From: an uncultured Candidatus Saccharibacteria bacterium | GTDB lineage: Bacteria; Patescibacteriota; Saccharimonadia; Saccharimonadales; CAYVSP01 | DNA length: 62,533 bases | NCBI GenBank assembly: GCA_964584265.1 | Contig: CAZOZI010000005.1 | Location: 1-62,533 of the forward strand | Direction of reading: 5' to 3' | Shown: positions 1-53,527 of the stretch, piece by piece | How the letters are laid out: each line of letters begins with the position of its first letter | How positions within the stretch are numbered: the first letter of the stretch is position 1 | Notes under the pieces: model-generated | The model's input: the letters and a program-made list of their open reading frames with translations, nothing else | Told to the model about the DNA's origin: nothing | Databases searched by the model: none | Position numbers and translations under genes: made by a program

Positions 1-23
1 CTGAAATAACTTCTTTCCAAGAA

Positions 24-175
24 GCATTTTTTGTTCCATTTTTGGGTCGCCAAAAACGGAACCAAAAAAGCGACCGGCGACTTCCGGTTCTTGATAAGCT
101 CATTGTCTAGAAGTACAACGCTACGGAGATTGCGCTTCGCTACAGCTCTCCTTCGCTATTGTTGTACTCTAGACA
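24..175. repeat. Three consecutive imperfect hairpins (REP/MITE-like palindromic element)
   Basis: 24-71 gcattttttgttccatttttgg-gtcg-ccaaaaacggaaccaaaaaagc; accgg/ccggt hairpin at ~73-88; 104-119 tgtctagaagtacaac pairs with 161-175 gttgtactctagaca (1-nt bulge), with inner ggaga/tctcc. Confidence 0.6.
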
Positions 176-227
176 TTCACTCAATCAGGAACCTACAGAG
201 CCGGATAAAACTAGTTTTGAGCCTGGT

Positions 228-758
228 TTAGTCTTTTGTTAAGCGCATGATTTTGGTGTTTGGGAGGGAAGCGAATAAGCTGCCCGGTACAAGCAGTTTG
301 GATTTGCGTATACCACTGCCAATTACGGCATATTCCAGTTTTGCGGCGTATTCATCCACTAGTATTGTCCAATCTTTAGGCAGCCCAATCGGCGATATTG
401 CTCCATACACCATATTTGAGAGCGATGTGGCTTTTTCCATTGGTGCAAAGGAGATTTTACGTGCGTCTAATTCGCGACGCACAACGCCATTTATATCAGC
501 TCTAATTGTAGCGGGTACTAAACATGCAGCGTACCATGTTCGTTCAGCGCGCCGAGCTTCTACAATCACGCAGTTTACCGATACATCCAATCCTATGTTG
601 TATTTCTCACAAAAAGCTGCTGTATCAGATAGTTCAGGGTCAATTTCGACCACTAAAATATCCTGTAAATCCTCGTTTTTTATGGTTTCTTTGGTTGGTT
701 CGCCGATGAGATCCAAATGTTCTTCAACTGGCTCAAAATTTAAGTTACCAAGTTTCAT
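228..758 (-). CDS. YbaK/EbsC-family aminoacyl-tRNA deacylase-like protein
   Basis: 176 aa; NCVIV, RADING, RKISFA and YGAISPIGLP segments typical of YbaK/ProX domains. Confidence 0.85.
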   Translation of the reverse strand: MKLGNLNFEPVEEHLDLIGEPTKETIKNEDLQDILVVEIDPELSDTAAFCEKYNIGLDVSVNCVIVEARRAERTWYAACLVPATIRADINGVVRRELDARKISFAPMEKATSLSNMVYGAISPIGLPKDWTILVDEYAAKLEYAVIGSGIRKSKLLVPGSLFASLPNTKIMRLTKD

Positions 759-932: not shown

Positions 933-1703
933 TTGATAAAAAACTCACGGTGTTATGCACAAAAACTTGGAGACTGCTCTAAAGCTCCCTCGAAAGAACA
1001 TATTCTTTCAAAAGACTTCTTGAAGGGAAATGCAAACTCAGGCAAAGATGAACTTATTAGAATTTCTGGATTTACGTGGCTTTCAGAGGGGGAATATCAA
1101 GATTTGCCAATTGCTACTATGTACTCAAGGGTTTTATGTGAGACACATAATAGTAAATTATCACCATTTGATAAAGAGGCTGGGCGCTTTCGAAGAACTC
1201 TACAAGAGTTTGATCAATATCTACTTGAAAACTGGACTGTCCTTAATAAAAGTTCACCTCCACGACCATTTAATGGCAGCCTACTGGAGCGGTGGATGTT
1301 AAAGGTTCTTTGCGGGCTTGCATATTCGGGGGCAGCAGAAACTAAGGGAATTGCTAAGAAGAAATGGCTGCCTCCTAACAAATGGTTACAAATATTATGG
1401 GGCAAAGAAGCTTTTCCTATTGGTTGTGGCCTTTATTGTCTGCCAGAATTTGTGAGTATAAAAGGCTGGTCCTTTGTGATATTTTCCAACTCTTTACAAG
1501 GTCCTTATGCCCTTAAGATGTCTATTGATGAAAAGACTTTTATTCTTGCTATGGATGATAAGTTAATAAAAACACATTTTAGTTCAGCAATATTTCATCC
1601 AGCAGTTATAACCACCAGCAAAGGTGCAAACGAATATAGCCTCCTAATAAATTGGGGTACTTCTGGCCCTGCTCAAAGCGTTACCTTCGTAAAACCTATA
1701 TAA
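933..1703 (+). CDS. HNH-endonuclease-like protein
   Basis: C-x6-C...SKEHILS...VLCETHNSKLSPFD matches the EH/LC-x2-(C/H)N pattern of HNH nucleases; TTG start uncertain. Confidence 0.6.
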   Translation: MIKNSRCYAQKLGDCSKAPSKEHILSKDFLKGNANSGKDELIRISGFTWLSEGEYQDLPIATMYSRVLCETHNSKLSPFDKEAGRFRRTLQEFDQYLLENWTVLNKSSPPRPFNGSLLERWMLKVLCGLAYSGAAETKGIAKKKWLPPNKWLQILWGKEAFPIGCGLYCLPEFVSIKGWSFVIFSNSLQGPYALKMSIDEKTFILAMDDKLIKTHFSSAIFHPAVITTSKGANEYSLLINWGTSGPAQSVTFVKPI

Positions 1704-1739
1704 AAAGCCTAAGTGCAAAACACAAATAAGACTAGCATG

Positions 1740-1759
1740 AAAATAAATTGCTAGCGATT
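1740..1759 (+). repeat. Intergenic 20-bp motif copy 1 (AAAATAAATTGCTAGCGATT, 16/20)
   Basis: Match to consensus AAAAGATATTGCTTGYGGTT; between convergent genes, contains the SWIM gene stop. Confidence 0.7.
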
Positions 1760-2062
1760 GCTAATTATGTAAAGCGTAAAAGCGATGCAGTGTTTGCAGA
1801 AAATCTGGTGATTTTTTGGGTTGCCGGCACAGTGCCACTCTAACCCTTTGGATGTAGCCGTCAGATTAACTCGGCGTCGTTGGCCGCCGCCTTCGGCGGA
1901 TGAGCCATCTAGGCCACCGACCCATGCTTCGACCTGCGATGGGGTTTGATTAATAATTTCCACGCCTCCACGTCTATAAATGGCCTGTCCGTACCGCCTA
2001 TTAGAGGGCAGGGTCAATTCTTCCATGGGGAGCTGGTGTAAAAGTTTAAGGAGGTGTTGCAC
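1751..2062 (-). CDS. SWIM zinc-finger-like protein
   Basis: C-terminal WHCAGNPKNHQIFCKHCIA resembles SWIM CxC...CKH; GTG start. Confidence 0.65.
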   Translation of the reverse strand: MQHLLKLLHQLPMEELTLPSNRRYGQAIYRRGGVEIINQTPSQVEAWVGGLDGSSAEGGGQRRRVNLTATSKGLEWHCAGNPKNHQIFCKHCIAFTLYIISNR

Positions 2063-2087
2063 TCTTACATTTTACGCTTCTGAGGGG

Positions 2088-2107
2088 AAAAGATATTGCT
2101 TGTGGTT
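2088..2107 (+). repeat. Motif copy 2 (AAAAGATATTGCTTGTGGTT, 20/20)
   Basis: Between tandem minus-strand genes; final TT belongs to the reverse-strand TAA stop at 2106-2108. Confidence 0.85.
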
Positions 2108-2642
2108 AGGTTTGGTTGCGGAGGTGGGTGGCTATAAGTTCAAGGTCAACAATGTCCTGTGGACGACCCAGAGCTTTTTTAGCAGCATCAATGTGTGGCA
2201 GCCCAAGGCAAAGGATACCATCGACCAGATTCGTTTCATCTCGATGAGTTTCGTAAGCAAGAGGGTAATATCCATCACCTAACTCATCAGTAGCACTAAG
2301 GGGCATAGCTAGACCTTCATGATTTATCCATACACTTGTATTTGTGGCACCATGCGATTTAGCACTTTCAGGTGGCTCATGCACCTCAGCCCCATCTTTT
2401 AAGCTAAGTGTCCTTAGTAAGCTCGCGCTCGCAAGAATATCAATATCGCGTGTTGTTTCACGTATGCCACGGAGCACTAAGTTCGCACCGCCAATGACAA
2501 AATAATGAAACCTTGCAATGCCAAGACTATTCCTGCCAAGTCCCAAGCGGCCAAGCGTTTGATGTATTGAGTTTCTGTCTCGAAGAGGAAGTGCCTCTGT
2601 TTGTCTAGGATAGTAGGTTTTCACACTGTCAGGCGAAGTCAT
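2106..2642 (-). CDS. Nucleotidyltransferase-fold (Pol beta superfamily) protein
   Basis: VIGGANLVLRGIRETTRDIDIL = GG...DxD signature; start moved to ATG 2642 (TATAAT 7 nt upstream). Confidence 0.7.
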   Translation of the reverse strand: MTSPDSVKTYYPRQTEALPLRDRNSIHQTLGRLGLGRNSLGIARFHYFVIGGANLVLRGIRETTRDIDILASASLLRTLSLKDGAEVHEPPESAKSHGATNTSVWINHEGLAMPLSATDELGDGYYPLAYETHRDETNLVDGILCLGLPHIDAAKKALGRPQDIVDLELIATHLRNQT

Positions 2643-2670
2643 GAACAGAATTATACAACTGAGGGATATG

Positions 2671-2690
2671 AAAAGATATTGCTTGTGCTT
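2671..2690 (+). repeat. Motif copy 3 (AAAAGATATTGCTTGTGCTT, 19/20)
   Basis: Between divergent genes. Confidence 0.85.
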
Positions 2691-2723
2691 GTGTGGCAAG
2701 AAGAAGTGAATATACTTTAGTTC

Positions 2724-3302
2724 ATGAGCGAGACAACTGAAGCAATTGTGACAGGGGATTTGAATGCTCACTCTGTGGATTTCAAAGATGCTGTAACAGC
2801 AGCGCTTGAGACTGATCCTGCTTTAGCTACAAACAGTGAGGGAAATCTTGAGCGCCGTTTGCAAATAAATAACCGCTACCTTACGTATACTGCTTTTGGT
2901 CCTGAGCCTCAAGGTCCCGGCAAGTCCATTTTATGGATTAAATACAGCCCTACCCATGCACTTGAACTCGAATTTGACCCAGCAAGTGACTTTTTATTTG
3001 GCGTCTCAGAAGATTTATCCCAACCGATCCGGCGTAGATACAGATATGGAGGCATGATTGGGGCGAGCGGGGGCTTACCAGATTTATTCACGGCAGAACA
3101 TGCACTAACTGGTGAAGAAGCCCAAGCTCTTCTGGATTTCATGAGCACCCCGCACCTTAAGCTTGGCAATATGGCCTTGTTTGCAACGCTTACCGAAGAA
3201 GAAAAAGAAGCAAAAACGGCAGATGCTCAAAAGGTTGCAAAGCAAAGGAGGAACCTACAAAGAGACTTGGACGCACTTGCGCGAACCCACTACCGCTTAT
3301 AA
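2724..3302 (+). CDS. Hypothetical protein (ORFan-like)
   Basis: 192-aa ORF; TATACT 7 nt before ATG; no recognised motif. Confidence 0.75.
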   Translation: MSETTEAIVTGDLNAHSVDFKDAVTAALETDPALATNSEGNLERRLQINNRYLTYTAFGPEPQGPGKSILWIKYSPTHALELEFDPASDFLFGVSEDLSQPIRRRYRYGGMIGASGGLPDLFTAEHALTGEEAQALLDFMSTPHLKLGNMALFATLTEEEKEAKTADAQKVAKQRRNLQRDLDALARTHYRL

Positions 3303-3305
3303 ATG

Positions 3306-3325
3306 AAAAGATATTGATAATTTTT
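3306..3325 (+). repeat. Motif copy 4, degenerate or split (AAAAGATATTGATAATTTTT, 15/20)
   Basis: First 11 nt perfect; a CTTGTACGTT half follows ~11 nt later; between tandem plus-strand genes. Confidence 0.6.
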
Positions 3326-3348
3326 GACTTGTACGTTGTAATACAGCT

Positions 3349-3726
3349 ATGAAAAGGCGAAATGACCGAGGCCAGCGACGACAAGAAGCACTGGACACAG
3401 CCGCGGCTATATCAGGGCATTACTATGGTGAGGCAGTATTTCCACCTCCACTCACAGAAGTGGTGGATCAATTAGGCGAGAGCTTTTCTAAGGTGCAATA
3501 TGCGGTTGGATCTTACCCACTTGCGCTAGAAGAAGCAACAGGCTTAGTAGTTATTCATGAAGGAATTGTGCTGGGAGATCCTAGTAAATTCGTTGGTTCA
3601 GCCGAGAAATCCACAGACTCTGTTGTAGAAAGCTTTGTCAATCAACTCAATGGGCTACCTCAAGATCTTAGGCTACAAGTGCTGAGTCGCCTAGCCGTGA
3701 GCGAAGCAAGCGTACAACCACAATAA
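3349..3726 (+). CDS. Hypothetical protein
   Basis: 125-aa ORF filling the interval between motif copies 4 and 5. Confidence 0.65.
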   Translation: MKRRNDRGQRRQEALDTAAAISGHYYGEAVFPPPLTEVVDQLGESFSKVQYAVGSYPLALEEATGLVVIHEGIVLGDPSKFVGSAEKSTDSVVESFVNQLNGLPQDLRLQVLSRLAVSEASVQPQ

Positions 3727-3749
3727 GGACTAAGTTAAATTGTTGATCT

Positions 3750-3769
3750 GAATGGTATAGCCTGTGGTT
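3750..3769 (+). repeat. Motif copy 5 (GAATGGTATAGCCTGTGGTT, 15/20)
   Basis: Between tandem plus-strand genes. Confidence 0.65.
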
Positions 3770-3840
3770 GCCTAACCTTTCACACACCCTGGAAATGTTG
3801 TAAAATATGAATAATCTAGAGGCAAAGAAGATACAGTGTA

Positions 3841-4878
3841 ATGATTGAAATCGAAGGTGAGGCTACATTAACACCGGTTTGCTACTCAGGCACTGAGTTT
3901 GGTGCTCTCTTAGAAGCTGCCCAGAAAACTGGCTTGCCGGCCACATTGAGTTGGAGCGCGCAGTTAGCCGAAAGCACGTACGGCTACGTTGTTGGGGCAG
4001 GAGGTACTAGGCGCACGGTTGCGGTCGTTGAAGAACATAGCGCAAAAACGGTTAACTGGTATGCACAGACCTTTCGAGCAAGAAGAGAGTTAAGCGAACC
4101 GGAAATTTTTGATACCGTTTGCCATCAAATGGTAGAAGAGGCTAAAGAGACCCCTCTTAGTAGAGAAGAAGTGTTTGCTACACTGGATGAGCTCTTTTTG
4201 GGCAACAGACTAGCTCTGCAGTATCCAAGTGTGATTTTAGAATGTAACGATCCCGGTCGCGCTGAAGGATCTTATGTTGATATGAGCAGAGGTGATTCCC
4301 GTAGTATCCAGGCCCATTATGACAAAAAAATTGACGATTACGGACCTAAAATTGATATTGCCGATGTGGTGAGAGAATCGTTCAAAGATGATGATAGCGA
4401 TGTGGCTACGCTCGCACATGATGTTGGTGTTCATATGGGTGATTTACCGGAAACGTTTGTTGTAGGCGAGGGGCAGGCATTCGTTGTCTATCGGACGCGC
4501 TTTGGCCGTTATAATTGGACATTCGCGCCTGATGGCCCTCTGGTAGACGATATGATTCTTATAAATCCGGAGGGCAGCAGTAAGTGGTATGTAGGACAGG
4601 TTGAGGTTGGCGAAGAGCTGACTCCAGAAGTCATAGAACGATTCGCGTCATACGGCTTTGAACACCGTAACTCAGACATTCCGGGTGTGCTTATTGGGGG
4701 AATTATCAGGCGAATAGATCGGTCATTTGTGAACCCACCGAAATCTTATCTACTAACTAATCGTCTAAAAGCTCAGATGGCAGAAATACGAGCAATGGAA
4801 GGCGCCAAAGAGGAGAGAGATAGAAGAGAAGAAGATGTCATAGAACCTTACGAGTTTCTGGATGAGCCAACAATCTAG
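3841..4878 (+). CDS. Hypothetical acidic protein
   Basis: 345-aa ORF, no recognised motif. Confidence 0.75.
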   Translation: MIEIEGEATLTPVCYSGTEFGALLEAAQKTGLPATLSWSAQLAESTYGYVVGAGGTRRTVAVVEEHSAKTVNWYAQTFRARRELSEPEIFDTVCHQMVEEAKETPLSREEVFATLDELFLGNRLALQYPSVILECNDPGRAEGSYVDMSRGDSRSIQAHYDKKIDDYGPKIDIADVVRESFKDDDSDVATLAHDVGVHMGDLPETFVVGEGQAFVVYRTRFGRYNWTFAPDGPLVDDMILINPEGSSKWYVGQVEVGEELTPEVIERFASYGFEHRNSDIPGVLIGGIIRRIDRSFVNPPKSYLLTNRLKAQMAEIRAMEGAKEERDRREEDVIEPYEFLDEPTI

Positions 4879-4884
4879 GCTAGG

Positions 4885-4904
4885 CAAAGGTATTGCTTGC
4901 GGTT
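4885..4904 (+). repeat. Motif copy 6 (CAAAGGTATTGCTTGCGGTT, 18/20)
   Basis: Fills most of a 24-bp gap between convergent genes; final TT is part of the reverse TAA at 4903-4905. Confidence 0.85.
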
Positions 4905-5514
4905 AGGGTTTGATAGCGAATGACGCGTTCAAAATCATATAGAAAAGGATACCTAGCCCGATTATGAAGATGGGACCCACAATTCTCATGAATTTTGACT
5001 TAATCATACCAATAATCAATCCACTGATGCCCGCTGTCAACATAAAACTAAGGGTTCTTTTGTCATCGCCAGCCATGCCACCCTTAACAAGCCCACCGAC
5101 AACGCCGGATGTCAGTGGAACATCGGGATTTGGATTTTCGATTTGATCGTTACTAACTGACTTTAATTTATCATCGAAGTCCAGTAGAAAAAGCAAGTTT
5201 TCAGCGTTTGGGTTTGGCTTGTAGTTTCTAATTTTGGCTAACTCTCCAGTATCGAGCCATCTATACATACAATTGGGGCAGGAGTCTATGATGATTTCAG
5301 TGTCATTATAATTAACCTTCTGCATTGCCGCCGAACAGTTAGGACAGGTAAGTTGCTGTTTGGTGTTAACAGCCTGAGAGTCTCCTTTATCGTCTACCGA
5401 TATCGTTTCTCGTTCTTGCAATACCTTTCCGGTTACAAGAATACCGTGTCGGGATGGGCAAGCTAAAACAGTACCTTCATGGACGAGTTCAATCTGACAA
5501 ACAGGACACAACAT
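4903..5514 (-). CDS. zf-TFIIB-type double zinc-ribbon protein with C-terminal membrane helices
   Basis: CPVC...CPSRHG and CPNC...DSCPNCMYRWLDTGEL; two hydrophobic C-terminal segments; ATG 5514 has TATAAT 7 nt upstream. Confidence 0.75.
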   Translation of the reverse strand: MLCPVCQIELVHEGTVLACPSRHGILVTGKVLQERETISVDDKGDSQAVNTKQQLTCPNCSAAMQKVNYNDTEIIIDSCPNCMYRWLDTGELAKIRNYKPNPNAENLLFLLDFDDKLKSVSNDQIENPNPDVPLTSGVVGGLVKGGMAGDDKRTLSFMLTAGISGLIIGMIKSKFMRIVGPIFIIGLGILFYMILNASFAIKP

Positions 5515-5546
5515 GATTCGAATTATACACACTCAAGCTTAAGGGA

Positions 5547-5566
5547 GACAGATATTACTTGTGGTT
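5547..5566 (+). repeat. Motif copy 7 (GACAGATATTACTTGTGGTT, 17/20)
   Basis: Directly abuts the reverse TAA of the PhzF-like gene. Confidence 0.8.
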
Positions 5567-6424
5567 TTAGACTTCCAGCTCTCGAGTACCGAAACTCACG
5601 GCATAACCGCCAACCTTAACACCTTTGCTTAAGTCTACGGATATAGTGCTGTCACACCCCATATCGAAGCCTTGCTCAATTGACATGGTATTCTTGTTGC
5701 CACCAAATATATATCTGTCGGCGTAACAAGCCAGTGGGCCGCCAGCACTCCCTGTTGCCGGGTCTTCATCAATACCTACTTGTGGATTGAAATAGCGGGT
5801 AGCCAAATCTGCATTACCACTAAATGATTCCTGTGCAAAAACTGAGAAACCAATGTCGTTGCCTTCTGTAAACTCCGTAATAGCATTAAAATCCGGGCGT
5901 ATCTCCTTTAAAGCTTCTAATGATTGAACTGGCACGATAAGTTTCTTAGAGCCAGTTGAAACTAATTCTATGGGAAGATCCGCAATTTGGGTGGCTTTTA
6001 TGCCAAGTATGCGAGCTATATCCTGACGTGATGCATTAGCCTTCTCGAAGGTGGGGTCGAACTGTGTCATCATTACCTTGCCATCTTCGTGAATAGTAAT
6101 TGGAATTGTACCTATCATTGTCTCTTCAAACGCACTTGCCAGGAAACCCTTAAAACTAAGCAGATCTTTGCTGAATAAAGAGAAGAAAGTTGCTACTGTG
6201 GCATGACCGCAGAAATCGACTTCTTGTTGAGCAGAAAAGAAACGAACCCTGTAGGCATCAATATCAGAAGCACTAACAAAAGCAGTTTCAGGATAATTAA
6301 GAGTGTGAGCAATATTAAGCATCTGCTCATCTGTTAACCCTCTTGAATCATGTACTATGCCGGCTGGATTACCTTTGTCTGGATCCGTCGTAAATGCTTT
6401 AACTAATTCCGCCGTGACATTCAT
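5567..6424 (-). CDS. PhzF-family isomerase/epimerase
   Basis: AFT...GNPAG, YPETAFV, EVDFCGHATVA, EDPATGSA motifs. Confidence 0.9.
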   Translation of the reverse strand: MNVTAELVKAFTTDPDKGNPAGIVHDSRGLTDEQMLNIAHTLNYPETAFVSASDIDAYRVRFFSAQQEVDFCGHATVATFFSLFSKDLLSFKGFLASAFEETMIGTIPITIHEDGKVMMTQFDPTFEKANASRQDIARILGIKATQIADLPIELVSTGSKKLIVPVQSLEALKEIRPDFNAITEFTEGNDIGFSVFAQESFSGNADLATRYFNPQVGIDEDPATGSAGGPLACYADRYIFGGNKNTMSIEQGFDMGCDSTISVDLSKGVKVGGYAVSFGTRELEV

Positions 6425-6453
6425 TAGCTAAATTATACCTTCACATGTGATGT

Positions 6454-6473
6454 GAATGATATTGCTTGTGGTT
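6454..6473 (+). repeat. Motif copy 8 (GAATGATATTGCTTGTGGTT, 18/20)
   Basis: Between divergent genes. Confidence 0.85.
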
Positions 6474-6498
6474 GCAAAATGCCTTGAGTAAGACATAA

Positions 6499-7185
6499 TT
6501 GGAGGAAATGACAGGCATTGACCAAGGTAGTACTGAACAAGAAGCTCAAGAATTTCCCGGCGGCATCCCTGTTGAAGTACCTATGAGCGATCACCTGCGC
6601 AAACAAATGCTTAGACTTTGTTTAAAACGTGCTAGCTCTTTGACTGGTATTGATGGCAGCGAACGAAGCTTTTATTTTGATATCGATTATTTATTGGGTC
6701 ATAACGCGAGAGCAGATACACCGGATCAATTTCAAACAACTGCTGCATTTTTAGGCGCAGTAGAGCACGCCATAAGAGAAGTATCAGCGGCTCAACCGAT
6801 TGATGCACTAGCATTCCCCTTAAGACGTAAACAACCGGGACCAACCGGTCTGATAAGTTCGGCTGTGCTTTTAGGGCGCAGAACGGGGCTACCCACTTAT
6901 TATATTGATCCTACTATGAGATTAAGGGCACAGCAAGTAAGGCCAATCGGTCCAACTCCACCTAATACACGATTTACTATTGTCACAGACATGACAGCAA
7001 GTGGCAGAGAAGTGATGGAAAGCGCTCAAGCTTTGTTTCAACATCGTTGCCGCTACATAGGTGCTATCAGTATATTTGATACAGGTGAAGGTGCTAGAGA
7101 ATACTTAGATCAAGCTGCTGGCATACCGCTGACAACAATAATGTCTGGTGGAGGGGTGTACGATATGAATGCTCCAGAATCTTGA
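6499..7185 (+). CDS. Divergent type I phosphoribosyltransferase-fold (PyrE-like) protein
   Basis: FTIVTDMTASGREVMESAQAL resembles the PRPP loop (xxDDxxTTG), followed by GAISIFD...GARE; start may be ATG 6508. Confidence 0.55.
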   Translation: MEEMTGIDQGSTEQEAQEFPGGIPVEVPMSDHLRKQMLRLCLKRASSLTGIDGSERSFYFDIDYLLGHNARADTPDQFQTTAAFLGAVEHAIREVSAAQPIDALAFPLRRKQPGPTGLISSAVLLGRRTGLPTYYIDPTMRLRAQQVRPIGPTPPNTRFTIVTDMTASGREVMESAQALFQHRCRYIGAISIFDTGEGAREYLDQAAGIPLTTIMSGGGVYDMNAPES

Positions 7186-7204
7186 TCAACGCAATTTTTA
7201 ATAA

Positions 7205-7224
7205 TAAAAATTTTGCTTGCTAAC
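7205..7224 (+). repeat. Motif copy 9, degenerate (TAAAAATTTTGCTTGCTAAC, 13/20)
   Basis: Core TTGCTTGC intact; between convergent genes, overlaps the reverse TAG at 7220-7222. Confidence 0.5.
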
Positions 7225-8488
7225 GAGTGTAGGTTTTGGCGGCGGAAGTGAAGCCGCTGACCTGAGCGGCAGTTTTACCGGGGAATACCTCAAACTTTAA
7301 TTTGCCACCGTCAAGAATCTGCGCCAAAACTGTGCCAAAGACAGGTCCGGAAGTCTTGGCTTTAGGTCCTTTTACATAGCTCATGCTATCCCATAGATTA
7401 CCGGAGGGTGTTAGCCATTGGCGTTGAACAAGCTCAAACTTAATGGCACCACTGCTTTTATCAATTTTAGCCGGATCCTGGCTGCCGCCTTCCGCAAAAT
7501 ACTGCCGGGAGTTACTGCCGTCACCGTTTGAAGTATCTCTGTTAGGCCCATATTGCGGATATGTTCCATAATTGCCAACTGAAACCACAGTGGCTGAAGG
7601 GTCATACAAATCTGGTGCGATCGAAAGGTGACCCTCCCAATAGTTTGGGCCTTTACCTTGGCTTGTACCGCTGTAGCCACCGGAGCCTTCCAAAAACCAG
7701 TTGCCAATCAGTTTGCCGTCAATATCATAGTCTATTTTGCCGGCAATTGGCTCGGCAACACGCGGATCTTTACCTTCGACTATAGTGCGTAGCTCAGAGG
7801 TGTAATACGGGAAGGGGTCGGCGGTATAAATCTTCCAAGCTTCACCGTCGTAGCTTGACGGATTTACAAAACCTTTCAATGGCTTCTTAGTGTTCCAAAC
7901 GGCAAAATCAAGTGTCTGGCCACCAATATGGCCAATCAGCTGGCCGGCTTTGACGCTAATGGGCAGATGTGCCTTATCTATGCCTGGTTCCACACTAGTA
8001 ACAAGGTCATAGTAGTACAGGAAGGTACAGGAAACTGTAAATACCATTCTAATACGTCCATTGCTGCCATTTTCGGGCGGGTGGACCTCTATATCTGTTA
8101 TCAACGCGTCGGCCATGGCATAGACCGGGTACGTATCTTTAGCTGATTGGAAATTTGTTGGTGAAAAATACTGGTGATCAACTGGCGTAACATGACCGCC
8201 AACCGTTACTCCATAAGGGATAAGTATCGAGAAGTCAGCTGCATTCATTGGAAGATGGGTGAATGTGCCATCACCAGAGCCTTTACACTGGTTATTACTT
8301 AAACTTTTACCAGCCGCAATGGCTTTTTCGTCATCTGATTTGTTGCTGCTGAGTATGCTTGATGAGCTACCGCTGGACTTATGCTTTGAAACAACCCGCC
8401 AACCGACGAAACCAACGGCCAAAACTACGATTAAACCAAACAATAAGAGTATATGGTGGAATCCCTGCTGATTCCGCTTAAGCTTCAT
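7220..8488 (-). CDS. Exported protein with prepilin-like N-terminus and possible M23-like fold
   Basis: MKLKRNQQGF followed by a hydrophobic helix; VKAGQLIGHIG segment; ATG 8488 has TATAAT 7 nt upstream. Confidence 0.6.
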   Translation of the reverse strand: MKLKRNQQGFHHILLLFGLIVVLAVGFVGWRVVSKHKSSGSSSSILSSNKSDDEKAIAAGKSLSNNQCKGSGDGTFTHLPMNAADFSILIPYGVTVGGHVTPVDHQYFSPTNFQSAKDTYPVYAMADALITDIEVHPPENGSNGRIRMVFTVSCTFLYYYDLVTSVEPGIDKAHLPISVKAGQLIGHIGGQTLDFAVWNTKKPLKGFVNPSSYDGEAWKIYTADPFPYYTSELRTIVEGKDPRVAEPIAGKIDYDIDGKLIGNWFLEGSGGYSGTSQGKGPNYWEGHLSIAPDLYDPSATVVSVGNYGTYPQYGPNRDTSNGDGSNSRQYFAEGGSQDPAKIDKSSGAIKFELVQRQWLTPSGNLWDSMSYVKGPKAKTSGPVFGTVLAQILDGGKLKFEVFPGKTAAQVSGFTSAAKTYTR

Positions 8489-8510
8489 GAACCAAATTAT
8501 ACACACAAGG

Positions 8511-8530
8511 TTAATATATTGCTTGCGGTT
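8511..8530 (+). repeat. Motif copy 10 (TTAATATATTGCTTGCGGTT, 17/20)
   Basis: Between divergent genes; last copy of the contiguous run. Confidence 0.8.
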
Positions 8531-8563
8531 TGATATTAAGTCCATTCGTTTTATTATTTGCCT

Positions 8564-8980
8564 ATGAGACGAACTAATTTAGGACTAGCAGTGCCAGTTA
8601 GTAGTTTTGAGTACACCATTCTGGACCAGGCTGGTGCCCCAGCGCCGGTATCAAGATCATTTGATAAAGGCCCAGGAGGAGAGTGGCAAATAATAGAAGC
8701 AAAATATGCCAGAGAAGATCTACCGTTTGTGCTTGAAGCTGCACATAGAGCATATGATCAAGCCCTAAATGACACACAGCCGAAGGAAGTTCAAGCACTC
8801 GATACACTTTATCCGGACCAACCCGATGAACACAACCTGGCCGCGCGGGAAACGCTGCGTCAATTAGTATTAAATGATCCTACTCGTGCACGTAAAACAG
8901 CGGCGCTTGTTGTCAGCTCGCAGCTTATTACTAAATTAACTCCGTCTACTCACCAACTCAAAACCCCTGGTAAGCATTAA
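8564..8980 (+). CDS. Hypothetical protein
   Basis: ORF from TTG 8558 or ATG 8564; TTGATA-16-TATTAT, then 6 nt to ATG. Confidence 0.65.
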   Translation: MRRTNLGLAVPVSSFEYTILDQAGAPAPVSRSFDKGPGGEWQIIEAKYAREDLPFVLEAAHRAYDQALNDTQPKEVQALDTLYPDQPDEHNLAARETLRQLVLNDPTRARKTAALVVSSQLITKLTPSTHQLKTPGKH

Positions 8981-8988
8981 CGAGGTGC

Positions 8989-9384
8989 TTATTTCTTAGC
9001 TTCGAGTATGCTCACACGGTTGCCTTCGGAGTCGTTGAATGAGACCCAAAGGCCAACTCCTGGTATTTGTTGTGGTTTGCCGAGCAATTTGCCGCCCGAG
9101 GCTTCTATATTCTTCATAGCTGCCTTAACGTCAGGCACCGAAATGACTACTGAGGGTGCGCCTGAGGCCTGCGGTCTGGTTACATCGTAAAAGCCGCCGT
9201 TGATAGCACCAGGCGTCTTAACCATCTGGTTTTTATCTGTTTCGGCTGTGTGGGCCGTTATATAATGGCCCATTTCTTCGCCAAATTCTTTCATCCCCCA
9301 ACCGAAGGCTTTTTTATAAAATTCAGCCACCCGCTTGGCGTCCTTATAGGGCATTTCAAAATGTACAACTGGATTTTTACTCAT
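8989..9384 (-). CDS. VOC/glyoxalase family protein
   Basis: VVHFEMP...FYKKAFGW...PGAINGG...FNDSEGNRV. Confidence 0.9.
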   Translation of the reverse strand: MSKNPVVHFEMPYKDAKRVAEFYKKAFGWGMKEFGEEMGHYITAHTAETDKNQMVKTPGAINGGFYDVTRPQASGAPSVVISVPDVKAAMKNIEASGGKLLGKPQQIPGVGLWVSFNDSEGNRVSILEAKK

Positions 9385-9402
9385 AAAACTCCCTTATTAA
9401 AA

Positions 9403-9651
9403 TTACTCTAAGTCAATAACCTCTAATACCTCGTTGACTGGCACATTTGCCTCATCGTGGGCTTTTTGTACCATATCGGCTGAGTCTGCCTCTGTAAGAC
9501 AAAAAGCTCTACCTTGCTCTGCACTGGCGTGAGCGTGTTTGGCAGAGCACCCAAGCTTGGAACAAGCTGCTTTATAAGATTCCCAAGTTTGTTTTACCAT
9601 CTCGTCCGTCATGGCGTTTCCCATGTTGTGTATACCGATGAATAAAGCCAT
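9403..9651 (-). CDS. DUF4242 (SCO4226-like) small protein
   Basis: FCLTEADSADMVQKAH...VPVNEVLEV; AGGAGG SD before ATG 9651. Confidence 0.7.
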   Translation of the reverse strand: MALFIGIHNMGNAMTDEMVKQTWESYKAACSKLGCSAKHAHASAEQGRAFCLTEADSADMVQKAHDEANVPVNEVLEVIDLE

Positions 9652-51022: not shown

Positions 51023-52636
51023 ATGGATAATTTGAGGAAACCTCAGCGGTCACATAAGCGAGCACCGCTAGACGGTATTATTAGACCTCGCCAAAACACA
51101 TCTCGTAACGCTGGCAGTATTAATTTTCGGACAACCGATGCACAAGTGCCGCAGCGGCCACTTGATGATTTTCGTCGTTCCGACGGCTTCCATTCAACTC
51201 CGCGTAGCACTATAGAACAACCCGCTCTAGCGGATCGACCACGTCACCCATTTACCCCCGGTGTAACACCTATGCCAGGAGCAAAACGGGCACAAAAAAA
51301 GCGCTCGTGGAAACGCTATGCTCTGCGCGGCGGGCTTGGCGTCTTTATAGTTGTGGCTCTGGTCAGTGGTTTTCTGGGGTGGAAAGTATTTCGCAATACT
51401 GGCAAGATATTCCAAGGCAGCGTTTTTGGGCTTTTTGATTCTACAAAATTAAAAGGTGAAGACACGGGTAGAGTTAACATACTGCTGACCGGCACCTCTG
51501 AAGATGATCCAGGTCACCCTGGCGCCTTGCTAACTGATTCCATCATGATTATAAGTCTGGATACGGTGAATCACAGTGCTTTTCTTATGAGCATACCGCG
51601 CGACTTATGGGTAAAATATGATACTAATCAGTGTTCTTTCGGTAATCAAGGAAAGATTAACGCAGTTTATGAATGCGGCGAGCAAGTGAAGTTTAAGCAG
51701 GATGGCTACCCTAATGGGGGCCTTGGTCTACTAGAAAAAGTAGTGGGCGAAGACTTTGGCATTAATATTAACTACTATGTAAAGATAAACTACACTGCTT
51801 TTCGCGATGCCGTAAATGCTGTTGGTGGGATTGATTTTAAAGTTCAAACTGATGATCCAAGAGGTCTATATGACGGTAACATTGCCAAGGCCGATGGCGG
51901 GCCCTTAAAACTAAGTAATGGCACACATCACTTAGATGGGCAAACAGCTCTTAACCTGGCCCGAGCGCGTTGCGATACTGTCTGTTATGGTTTTTCACGA
52001 GGGGATTTTGATCGTACAGAACATCAACGGCAGATGTTACTTGCCCTTAAGGATAAGGCTTTTTCAGTTGGCGTTCTAAGTAATCCTGCAAAAGTTAGTA
52101 GTCTATTAGATGCTATTGGCAACAATGTCAAAACCGATTTTAAGACTAACGAAATCCGTCGGCTATATGATCTAGGTAAGCAAACCCAAAACCAAAATAT
52201 TAAATCTATTGGTTTGGCTGACGATAGCGTACATCTTGTGACTACTGGACCGATTAATGGTGTAAGTGCTGTTAGACCGGTGGCAGGCTTATTTGACTAT
52301 TCACAGATTCAAGCTTTTGTAAAACGACTAATTAGTAATGATCCTGTGGCACGTGATGGTGCTACAGCTGTTGTCTTAAATGGTAGCGGTGTCAGTGGAC
52401 TGGCCAAAAAGAAAGCTGATGAATTAGCTGCCAAAGGAGTAACTATTGTAACGGTGGCCAACACCACGACAAAAGCGACAACTACCGTTGTAAGCCTCAA
52501 TGCTCAAAAAACCGTAACTAGTAACTATCTTGCTCAAAAATTCAATGTTACACCAACTACTGATACAGCGGCTTATCCAGAAGCTAAAAATTACAATGCA
52601 GACTTTGTCATTATTTTAGGCTCTGACGCAAAATAA
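51023..52636 (+). CDS. LCP (LytR-CpsA-Psr) family protein with C-terminal LytR_C domain
   Basis: TDSIM, SIPRDL, KINA, DFDRTEHQR; VVLNGSGVSGLA. Confidence 0.9.
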   Translation: MDNLRKPQRSHKRAPLDGIIRPRQNTSRNAGSINFRTTDAQVPQRPLDDFRRSDGFHSTPRSTIEQPALADRPRHPFTPGVTPMPGAKRAQKKRSWKRYALRGGLGVFIVVALVSGFLGWKVFRNTGKIFQGSVFGLFDSTKLKGEDTGRVNILLTGTSEDDPGHPGALLTDSIMIISLDTVNHSAFLMSIPRDLWVKYDTNQCSFGNQGKINAVYECGEQVKFKQDGYPNGGLGLLEKVVGEDFGININYYVKINYTAFRDAVNAVGGIDFKVQTDDPRGLYDGNIAKADGGPLKLSNGTHHLDGQTALNLARARCDTVCYGFSRGDFDRTEHQRQMLLALKDKAFSVGVLSNPAKVSSLLDAIGNNVKTDFKTNEIRRLYDLGKQTQNQNIKSIGLADDSVHLVTTGPINGVSAVRPVAGLFDYSQIQAFVKRLISNDPVARDGATAVVLNGSGVSGLAKKKADELAAKGVTIVTVANTTTKATTTVVSLNAQKTVTSNYLAQKFNVTPTTDTAAYPEAKNYNADFVIILGSDAK

Positions 52637-52777
52637 TATGATAAGCCGAACCTGTTTAGTTAACATAGAAAAAGTAGTTCCTTGTAACGCAAAGCTATAT
52701 AATACATGGTAAAGATGTGGCTAATGCGTCTCAGTAAATTTTTTCAGACTGACAACCTGCGACAGGAGGATCTCTAG

Positions 52778-53527
52778 ATGGCTTTCACCCTAGCTAGTAT
52801 AAAACCCAAAGGTGGCATATCACATATCTTGCATATTGGGCTCAATGCTTTGCTGCCGGCACTCCTCTTTATTTTAGTTCGTATAAATGTCGTGCAACTA
52901 GCACTGATTGTTATACTTTTGAGTAAATGGCGAATGTTCGCCGTAAAACCCCGGCATTGGCCAGCCAATATCCGGGCCAACGCGGTTGATCTCATTGTGA
53001 GTGTGTCCATACTAGTTTTTATGGCACATAGCGGCACGGCATTGTGGCAACTTGTTTGGGCAACGAGCTACGGAGTATGGTTGTTATCAATAAAACCTGG
53101 ATCAAACACGTTTATGATTTCTTTACAGGCACTCTTGGCACAACTGGTTGGTTTTATGGCACTTTTTCTTCGGTGGGGCGATATCTCAACGTTTGGGTTA
53201 ATTATCCTAAGTTGGGTGATAGCCTATTCAGCGGCCCGCCATTTCTTTAGTGCTTTTGACGAACCAATGATCCGTTTTCTGGCCTATTTATGGGGTTATT
53301 TTGCTGCGGCGCTGGTCTGGGTGCTCAGCCATTGGCTGCTTTTTTACGGTGTGCTGGCTCAGCCAACACTTCTTATTAGTGTGATTGGGTTTGGTCTAGG
53401 GACGCTATACTACCTTGAAAAGACTGATCGATTGAGTATTTTAGTGCGGCGTCAGCTCATTTTTGTGATGATTGCGGCGATTGTTATAGTTATCGCTTTT
53501 TCCGATTGGGGCGATAAAGCAATTTAA
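52778..53527 (+). CDS. Multi-pass membrane protein
   Basis: 249 aa, about eight hydrophobic segments. Confidence 0.75.
   Translation: MAFTLASIKPKGGISHILHIGLNALLPALLFILVRINVVQLALIVILLSKWRMFAVKPRHWPANIRANAVDLIVSVSILVFMAHSGTALWQLVWATSYGVWLLSIKPGSNTFMISLQALLAQLVGFMALFLRWGDISTFGLIILSWVIAYSAARHFFSAFDEPMIRFLAYLWGYFAAALVWVLSHWLLFYGVLAQPTLLISVIGFGLGTLYYLEKTDRLSILVRRQLIFVMIAAIVIVIAFSDWGDKAI

Follow-up and report, generated by a model that had tools for sequence, protein, structure and literature searches.

A hypervariable, cassette-like gene array beside the rRNA operon of Saccharibacteria, with units bounded by a co-oriented 22-bp site

The Saccharibacteria are ultra-small and depend on a host; their genomes measure approximately 0.8 Mb, and their acquisition and turnover of accessory genes are poorly understood. 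The window considered here is the whole analyzed stretch of 62,533 nucleotides, contig C5 of an 819-kb, 25-contig assembly of an uncultured Candidatus Saccharibacteria bacterium from soil. Approximately 1.7 kb from the contig end begins a hypervariable, cassette-like array of small genes. It occupies one fixed chromosomal locus, its units are exchanged at a 22-bp site, and the promoters of its genes stand in register with that site. We give a probability of roughly 0.45 to the reading that this is a new integron-like array in which a sequence-specific recombinase, supplied in trans, makes its crossovers at the site. Full-text literature searches found no published description of such arrays in Saccharibacteria. 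Below, G000 is the genome of the window and W the window itself; L and G numbers denote loci and genomes of relatives, and F numbers denote protein families.

The consensus of the boundary motif, taken from the information profile, is GGAAAAGATATTGCTYGTGGTT (22 nt). Its right edge is sharp, with the information dropping steeply after GGTT, and conservation is highest in TTGCTYGTGG, in its center and right part. With a strong copy defined by at most three mismatches to the 20-mer AAAAGATATTGCTTGYGGTT, the 62.5-kb window contains six strong matches (2088, 2671, 4885, 5547, 6454 and 8511), all on the + strand, versus 0.01 expected from shuffles. Together with four decayed copies (1740, 3306, 3750 and 7205), the array has ten copies on the same strand. 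Each of the ten intergenic gaps within 1704–8563, which divide eleven open reading frames (ORFs) spanning 933–8980, holds one of them. The first-pass annotation of this DNA had described one + strand copy per intergenic gap, ten in total, lying between convergent, divergent and tandem genes, and both the count and the assignment of junctions were correct. Judged by sequence comparison, the four weak copies are real though decayed. Two of them have strong orthologues in relatives, located ahead of the same genes: 1740 corresponds to L015 277 and L014 3994, ahead of the SWIM-like gene, and 7205 to sites in L140 and L096, ahead of the exported-protein gene (F4). The 3750 site is 86% identical to the 6454 site across 28 nt. 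A scan of the whole assembly showed that the motif is confined to a 6.8-kb stretch of contig C5 and is absent from the remaining 812 kb of the genome.

The units between the sites turn over extensively. When the ORFs of 11 loci were clustered, most units were singletons. Between the genomes G063 and G064, 2.5 kb of flank are 92.5% identical, and the F9 unit is the only one that their arrays (4.4 and 11 kb) have in common. F9 is found in three differing contexts, and its homologues form units of their own with other neighbors at L095 3039–3563 and L094r 1486–2010; outside arrays, F9 homologues have no motif. F7, F10, F15 and F25 also vary in position or neighbors. The F4 gene lies within the array in the window and in L016 and to the right of the glyoxalase flank in L094r and L095, and a tRNA_edit gene, which in the window is found left of the array, is one of the array genes in L093. 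In the window, the SCO4226-like gene is not part of the array; in L054, motifs bound it, and it stands beside a homologue of the window gene 2724–3302. Units hold one to three genes in either orientation and measure 0.3–1.3 kb.

At least two rearrangements have their junction within the motif. The segment L067r 1–488 corresponds to L092r 2229–2715 at 98.4% identity, and L067r 469–860 corresponds to L092r 5397–5788 at 93.1%. The 20-nt overlap of these two matches is the motif, and the subsequent units differ again (L067 versus G061:C14). In G061, three units encoding a HIT-family protein, a protein of 87 amino acids (aa) and a ribbon-helix-helix-like protein are duplicated in tandem over 1170 bp (L092r 2126–3335 and 3296–4505, 99.4% identical), and the junction of the duplication falls within GGAAAAGATATTGCT in the motif. 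In exact-protein look-ups, the HIT protein was found only on contigs with the known arrangement, and nothing was found for PhzF. The joints seen in the assembled contigs of four soil runs stem from co-occurring relatives and not from variants of the window strain. The first-pass annotation had taken the motif for a unit boundary and had regarded a gene order fixed across relatives as an argument to the contrary. The boundary role is upheld, and a unit swap between close strains has its junction within the motif; order and content between the sites vary in relatives, with whole-unit steps at the motif.

The array of the window (1740–8980) consists of the following features.

1740–1759, +: decayed site AAAATAAATTGCTAGCGATT at a convergent junction, 4 mismatches in 20
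1751–2062, -: unit 1, SWIM-like small protein (F16), an ORF 71% identical to L015 291–596
2069–2075, -: leftward -10 box ATTTTAC for unit 1, 12 nt before GGAAAAG of the next site
2086–2107, +: boundary site GGAAAAGATATTGCTTGTGGTT, perfect consensus (0 mismatches), its last TT overlapped by the TAA stop of 2106–2642
2106–2642, -: unit 2, nucleotidyltransferase-like protein (F9), with homologous units elsewhere beside other neighbors
2650–2656, -: -10 box of unit 2 (TATAAT on the - strand), ATG 7 nt downstream, leaderless type, GATATT spacing in the 17–19-nt class
2671–2690, +: boundary site at a divergent junction, 1 mismatch
2724–3302, +: unit 3, protein without a family match, ATG 33 nt past the motif end
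3306–3325, +: half site by sequence comparison, left half GAAAAGATATT perfect, right half unrelated
3349–3726, +: unit 4, protein without a family match (ORF, Pfam)
3750–3769, +: decayed site GAATGGTATAGCCTGTGGTT, recognized by its likeness to the 6454 site
3841–4878, +: unit 5, 345-aa protein without a family match (ORF, Pfam), promoter-like TTCACA-16-TAAAAT at 3779–3806
4885–4904, +: boundary site in a 24-nt convergent gap, 2 mismatches, last TT overlapped by the stop of 4903–5514, promoter unneeded
4903–5514, -: unit 6, zinc-ribbon (TFIIB-type) membrane protein (PF13453, E=2e-10)
5547–5566, +: boundary site at a tandem (-/-) junction, 3 mismatches, leftward -10 box ATTATAC at 5522–5528
5567–6424, -: unit 7, PhzF-family isomerase (PF02567, E=6e-64), stop codon beginning directly after GGTT
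6454–6473, +: boundary site at a divergent junction, 2 mismatches, leftward -10 box at 6432–6438
6472–6499, +: rightward promoter TTGCAA-16-CATAAT, beginning on the last TT of the 6454 site
6508–7185, +: unit 8, phosphoribosyltransferase (PRTase)-like protein, weak pyrE-domain match under the cut-off
7205–7224, +: decayed site at a convergent junction, with orthologous strong sites before F4 in L140 and L096
7220–8488, -: unit 9, exported protein (F4), in the array in W and L016
8511–8530, +: last strong site, divergent junction, 3 mismatches, leftward -10 box at 8496–8502
8530–8557, +: rightward promoter TTGATA-16-TATTAT, beginning on the last T of the 8511 site
8564–8980, +: unit 10, F10 protein, with homologues at other array positions in L015 and L095
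8989–9384, -: glyoxalase (F2, Pfam), onset of the conserved right flank

Five of the array genes read rightward and five leftward. The names given to the cargo in the first-pass annotation stand for the PhzF protein and the TFIIB-type zinc ribbon, which Pfam recovers. The PRTase-like label has only the sub-threshold pyrE match, and the SWIM and nucleotidyltransferase labels have no significant match for the window proteins, with one member of the cargo set matching NTP_transf_5. Across the 74 proteins of the arrays, the Pfam families comprise NUDIX, GNAT, PhzF, ANT(2''), RibD_C, glyoxalase, cupin, CutA1, histidine phosphatase and SET, together with a CAP12-type TIR domain and HNH_5. Approximately two thirds of the proteins have no Pfam match. 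A gene pair in L067 looks, from its sequence, like a RelE-type toxin-antitoxin system, and the cargo profile resembles that of chromosomal integrons. At the start of the L093 array (G062:C2), the gene 1469–2941 encodes a 490-aa protein with a CAP12/Pycsar-type TIR domain that starts with IFYSWQSD. The gene, which reads divergently from the first motif, resembles a defense-type gene. HNH-type proteins of approximately 260 aa (C-x2-C ... EH ... N) are encoded at the left array edge in the window (933–1703) and in L014 (206–994). One of the two matches HNH_5; they are too dissimilar to cluster, and no other array has them.

The motif was sought in 61 relatives by pattern search, in public genome and metagenome contigs and in 401 genomes of the order. 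Among the 61 relatives, co-oriented clusters on short contigs were found in every genome of the window's family. Beyond the window, at least 14 other loci in Saccharibacteria of several GTDB families carry co-oriented arrays, one per genome. They hold 13 sites in G061:C14 (L092), six in G062:C2 (L093) and five in G064:C14, and further arrays are present in G063, G164, L054, L067 and L078. The 57 non-redundant strong sites of 18 loci are all co-oriented within their locus (forward strand), and the sole reverse-strand match in these loci sits within a ROK gene. Over several GTDB families the motif is near-identical, versus approximately 70–75% identity of the surrounding coding DNA. It is not present in most of the 401 genomes of the order that were sampled. 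Distant homologues of unit 2 (41–52% identity) have no motif in three of four contexts, and in the fourth there is a variant repeat. A phage or plasmid source of the motif was rejected, as the matches outside Saccharibacteria and the ten matches in viral contigs are single copies, mostly in seemingly conserved coding sequences.

A similar but distinct boundary repeat, AACCNCCACAACAATYNCCC, occurs in L146 (ENA contig NODE_13428) at 2598–2617, 3223–3242 and 3992–4011, in one orientation and between small accessory genes, one of which is a unit 2 homologue. It has CACAA(G)CAAT in common with the reverse complement of the window motif, and a single exact copy (G088) was found among the 401 genomes of the order. 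Judged by sequence, this may be the same kind of site in a lineage-specific form. Another form, GGGGAG(A)GGAAAGCGCAG..., looks like a decayed junction and was seen past the 5S terminator and between leftward genes without a strong motif (L017r about 350–400; L094r 1450–1490 and 2070–2110). These copies may be old, eroded boundary sites. Many single motif-like matches elsewhere in the order arise because the end of dnaX, which encodes TISNIF, reads ATATTGCTTATGGTT on the opposite strand in many families, one base off the array motif. This end (TISNIFG...) is conserved at the nucleotide level at the dnaX–dnaB junction of L120–L124, which represent five other Saccharibacteria families, and lies at C1:106080–106170 in G000. 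An origin of the motif as a copy of the dnaX 3' end was rejected, as G000 has a weaker match and its dnaX gene does not lie near the array, and the resemblance was treated as a coding coincidence.

The flanks show that these arrays share one chromosomal locus. If each locus is turned so that the motif lies on the + strand, its right flank contains the glyoxalase gene (F2), the SCO4226-like gene, a second glyoxalase gene, and genes for an MFS transporter, GHL15, a ROK kinase, ribosomal protein S1 and initiation factor IF-2. This flank lies to the right of the array in nine loci and is conserved wherever the contig of an array extends there. On the left, where the contig extends, are the 3' end of the 23S ribosomal RNA (rRNA) gene, the 5S rRNA gene and a terminator. 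A 5S or 23S rRNA gene lies left of the array in L013, L017, L092, L093, L094 and L095, and in L013 the first site directly follows the 5S terminator. Across the locus, the rRNA operon and the S1 and IF-2 genes share one reading direction, from left to right. The G000 assembly lacks 5S and 23S, which accounts for the contig end here and for the related arrays on short contigs. As the locus is at rRNA operons, where metagenome assemblies break, such arrays are probably under-reported. A derivation of the motif from the 3' end of 5S rRNA was rejected, since 5S ends and trailers do not contain it.

Some further observations concern the edges of this locus. The word depth of window positions 1–350 in soil runs is 7- to 120-fold, versus approximately 6-fold for the rest of the window, and the contig end carries a 26-nt inverted repeat (86–111 and 168–193). 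Positions 1–350 are probably a multicopy or widely conserved element where the assembly broke. Positions 9101–9450, the 5' half of the glyoxalase gene, have 20- to 65-fold word depth in soil runs with many variant positions and appear to be common to several co-occurring relatives. A stretch of approximately 100 nt upstream of 5S in a relative (L095 143–254) has five copies of approximately 77% identity in G000 (C6:28947–29054, C7:5208–5312, C1:41283–41381, C3:92861–92927 and C8:8382–8476) and, on sequence grounds, looks like an interspersed repeat family.

The motif also stands in a fixed register with the genes around it. Leftward genes to the right of a site have their stop codon -3 to 0 nt from the motif end at 19 of 26 sites, with an overlap at 18, typically as GGTTA. 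For rightward genes, the last TT of the motif and the following GCAw make a TTGCAw -35 box, from which a 16–17-nt spacer leads to a -10 box and then, 6–7 nt on, to the ATG; in 11 of 26 cases (18 loci), 32–35 nt separate the motif from the ATG. Where the leftward gene is on the left of the site, 19 of 25 cases have a -10 box (+ strand sequence ATTATAC) at 17–19 nt from GATATT, with the ATG approximately 7 nt farther on; neither a further -35 box nor a TG extension is present in these promoters. In the window, the -10 boxes are 6–8 nt ahead of the start codons, and no intrinsic terminators were found in the gaps. The motif is present at all 16 divergent junctions and at about half of the convergent ones, where several copies are decayed. 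Strong sites at convergent junctions, where a promoter is unneeded, are W 4885, L092r 1742 and 5829, L093 4500 and L014 2119. The fixed register with promoters on both sides does not agree with the purely recombinational site that the first-pass annotation had proposed; the motif therefore has, or has acquired, a transcriptional role. No candidate regulator for the motif was identified. A sigma-54 promoter was rejected: the GG-N10-GC spacing fits (GGAAAAGATATTGC), but G000 has no Sigma54_DBD domain and only one sigma-70-family gene.

A recombinase acting in trans is favored because the units abut the site exactly, all copies have strictly one polarity, and the site is near-identical across families. 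It is also favored because copies are well kept where no promoter is needed, and because conservation peaks in the center and right of the motif, which a sigma-70 promoter does not require. Under this reading, crossover would occur at the 22-bp site, and the candidate enzyme would be the single Xer-type recombinase of G000, suggested by the weak arm-spacer-arm layout AAAAG-ATATTG-CTTGT; a mobile large serine recombinase of the lineage would be the alternative. Insertion would take place at a co-oriented site, which would account for the one polarity of every copy. The same site would contribute to a back-to-back promoter, as its upstream or -35 part, and a captured ORF would thus be expressed in either orientation. 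An extended version, put forward tentatively and in our estimate rather unlikely, is a capture platform of Saccharibacteria's own, independent of integrons, that combines a 22-bp crossover site for a trans-acting, possibly Xer-type recombinase with a leaderless back-to-back promoter core and an rRNA anchor. If it were true, an ORF captured in either orientation would be expressed at once, and the rRNA operon would be a universally conserved anchor for interspecies exchange.

A number of observations weigh against the involvement of such an enzyme. The dyad of the motif is weak, with four of five inner-arm positions matching. The only tyrosine recombinase gene (PF00589) of G000, on contig C4 in the region 52428–52955, is Xer-type and scores 144 bits versus the 265 cut-off of the integron-integrase model, and no serine recombinase (Resolvase domain) was found in G000. 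No recombinase genes were found in or beside any array, including contigs spanning 23S to IF-2. Large serine recombinases are encoded in five of ten array genomes on other contigs, and they were rejected as neighbors of the motif, none having one within 1.5 kb. Cumulative GC skew shows a net rise over the window with local dips and no lasting switch, so the locus does not have the position of a terminus or dif site; replication therefore passes through the locus, which is not an origin or a terminus. A primarily transcriptional element would fit both the fixed promoter register on either side and the retention of left halves together with their leftward promoter once the right half is lost (L013r 5666 and L014 2462). 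Junctions within a 22-bp repeat are equally expected from slippage or short-homology recombination. The first-pass annotation had placed the recombinase elsewhere, possibly left of the window, where relatives have the 23S–5S rRNA operon. Its idea of integron-like capture survives in the unit boundaries, the turnover and the non-hairpin site; no recombinase was found linked to the site, and the promoter role had been missed.

Many of these points suit a serious rival, homology-driven shuffling of a conserved promoter core, which we consider a real possibility. The motif would here be a bidirectional leaderless promoter core or operator, and its direct repeats would act as short homology with no dedicated recombinase. 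Rearrangement would proceed by replication slippage, by unequal crossing-over or, following natural transformation, by homology-facilitated illegitimate recombination, with the rRNA genes and the right flank as anchors. The presence of the motif at every divergent junction but at only about half of the convergent ones, several in decayed form, speaks for this explanation. It is also consistent with the rightward -35 box that begins on the motif's last TT, with the 11/26 and 19/25 registers, with leftward promoters that lack any other -35 box or TG extension, with the surviving left halves and with the lack of a recombinase at the locus. A crossover between a +/+ and a -/- site would yield exactly the convergent sites seen, and the adjoining conserved rRNA genes are a good interspecies anchor. 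However, RecA-dependent exchange normally needs homology well over 22 bp, and the motif is far below this length, yet turnover is extreme. The best-conserved TTGCTYGTGG lies between the two -35 positions and is not explained by a sigma-70 promoter alone. Co-orientation at 57 sites is not required either, as a flipped promoter would serve a leftward gene equally, and sites in convergent gaps such as W 4885 are well kept. The genome has one sigma-70, no sigma-54 and no identified candidate regulator.

It is improbable that the motif is purely a regulatory site of one DNA-binding protein and that the rearrangements are ordinary island turnover. The fixed promoter register and the confinement to one locus would be understandable under this explanation, but two rearrangement junctions lie inside the motif, and the units abut it to the base, with the stop codon within 3 nt at 19 of 26 sites. 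Strong copies also stand at convergent junctions, and the copies share one orientation irrespective of how the genes are oriented. Hardly any weight is left for a classical integron remnant, that is, a cluster of attC sites lacking integron integrases (CALIN), or for a genome-wide polar word such as Chi, an FtsK-orienting polar sequence (KOPS) or a DNA uptake sequence. The small, mostly unknown genes agree with the former, and GCTTGTGG is one base from E. coli Chi. There is, in turn, no hairpin, no attC-length site, no Rfam match and no integron integrase, the motif is absent from the other 812 kb and from most of the 401 genomes, and these results refute this rival. The polar words (Chi, KOPS and uptake word) were rejected individually as well, since all strong copies lie within 6.8 kb of C5; the first-pass annotation had suggested a comparison with Chi- and uptake-type words, and it yielded no genome-wide polar word. 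An attC-like hairpin or known RNA was rejected, as no fold of the motif beat shuffles and Rfam gave no match. When both strands of the six strong junctions were folded, 11 of 12 folds had z-scores of -1.95 to +1.44 versus shuffles, and the remaining one, at -3.07, owes its value to hairpins outside the motif. No helix shared by the single-strand folds involves the motif, which bears out the non-hairpin site of the first-pass annotation. A dif or terminus site was likewise rejected, given that there is no GC-skew switch and no canonical dif-like sequence in G000.

Whichever mechanism applies, this is a compact array without integrase or attC, in which the boundary doubles as a promoter anchor and turnover is nearly complete between genomes of approximately 92% identity. 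If a recombinase is found, the system would be an independently evolved integron analogue with a very short site and a possible genetic tool for a group that is hard to manipulate. Should there be no such enzyme, the arrays would be a clear case from nature in which a promoter repeat drives modular gene shuffling beside an rRNA anchor.

Several known systems share features with these arrays. Sedentary chromosomal integrons and CALINs are similar in having one array in a fixed place, sub-kilobase units with mostly one gene, and a co-oriented repeat in or against which the ORFs end. Their content also differs almost wholly between relatives, and the cargo includes GNAT, NUDIX, glyoxalase/bleomycin-resistance-type proteins, nucleotidyltransferases, toxin-antitoxin pairs and unknowns. 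The repeat differs: here it is 22 bp long, conserved in sequence and unstructured, whereas attC is a hairpin of 57–141 bp conserved in structure. Moreover, there is no IntI and no attI/Pc platform here. Integron cassettes are promoterless, lie in one orientation and use the common promoter Pc, while the genes described here lie in both orientations and have their own in-register promoters. Composite islands of the staphylococcal cassette chromosome (SCC), inserted at the rlmH 3' end by the large serine recombinases CcrAB or CcrC, have short co-oriented direct repeats (approximately 18 bp) between successive units at one conserved site. Many SCC units lack a recombinase and rely on one in trans, and the repeat overlaps a stop codon, as it does here. 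In contrast to SCC units of 3–60 kb, the units here measure 0.3–1.3 kb, no ccr-type gene is present in the arrays examined, the anchor lies behind the 5S rRNA terminator and not at the end of a protein gene, and the repeat is tied to promoters.

Modules that exploit Xer recombination have a 28–31-bp site with two inverted arms and a 6–8-bp spacer that resembles the host dif. Integrative mobile elements exploiting Xer (IMEX) at dif and the pdif modules of Acinetobacter are comparable as small recombinase-less modules with short arm-spacer-arm sites. They are moved by the housekeeping Xer enzymes, and the only tyrosine recombinase of G000 is also Xer-type. The present motif differs in its weak dyad and in having no similarity to the known dif consensus. 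Unlike IMEX, the locus has no GC-skew switch, and unlike pdif sites, which alternate in orientation, the sites here are all direct. In location, the nearest published parallel is reportedly hypervariable region 2 (HVR2) of SAR11, a flexible genomic island between the 23S and 5S genes. Flexible islands that adjoin rRNA or transfer RNA (tRNA) genes, such as HVR2 and tRNA-anchored tandem islands, have in common with these arrays a hypervariable accessory locus beside a conserved RNA gene and a possible interspecies anchor, whereas the short, sequence-conserved site at each unit boundary distinguishes the Saccharibacteria arrays from them.

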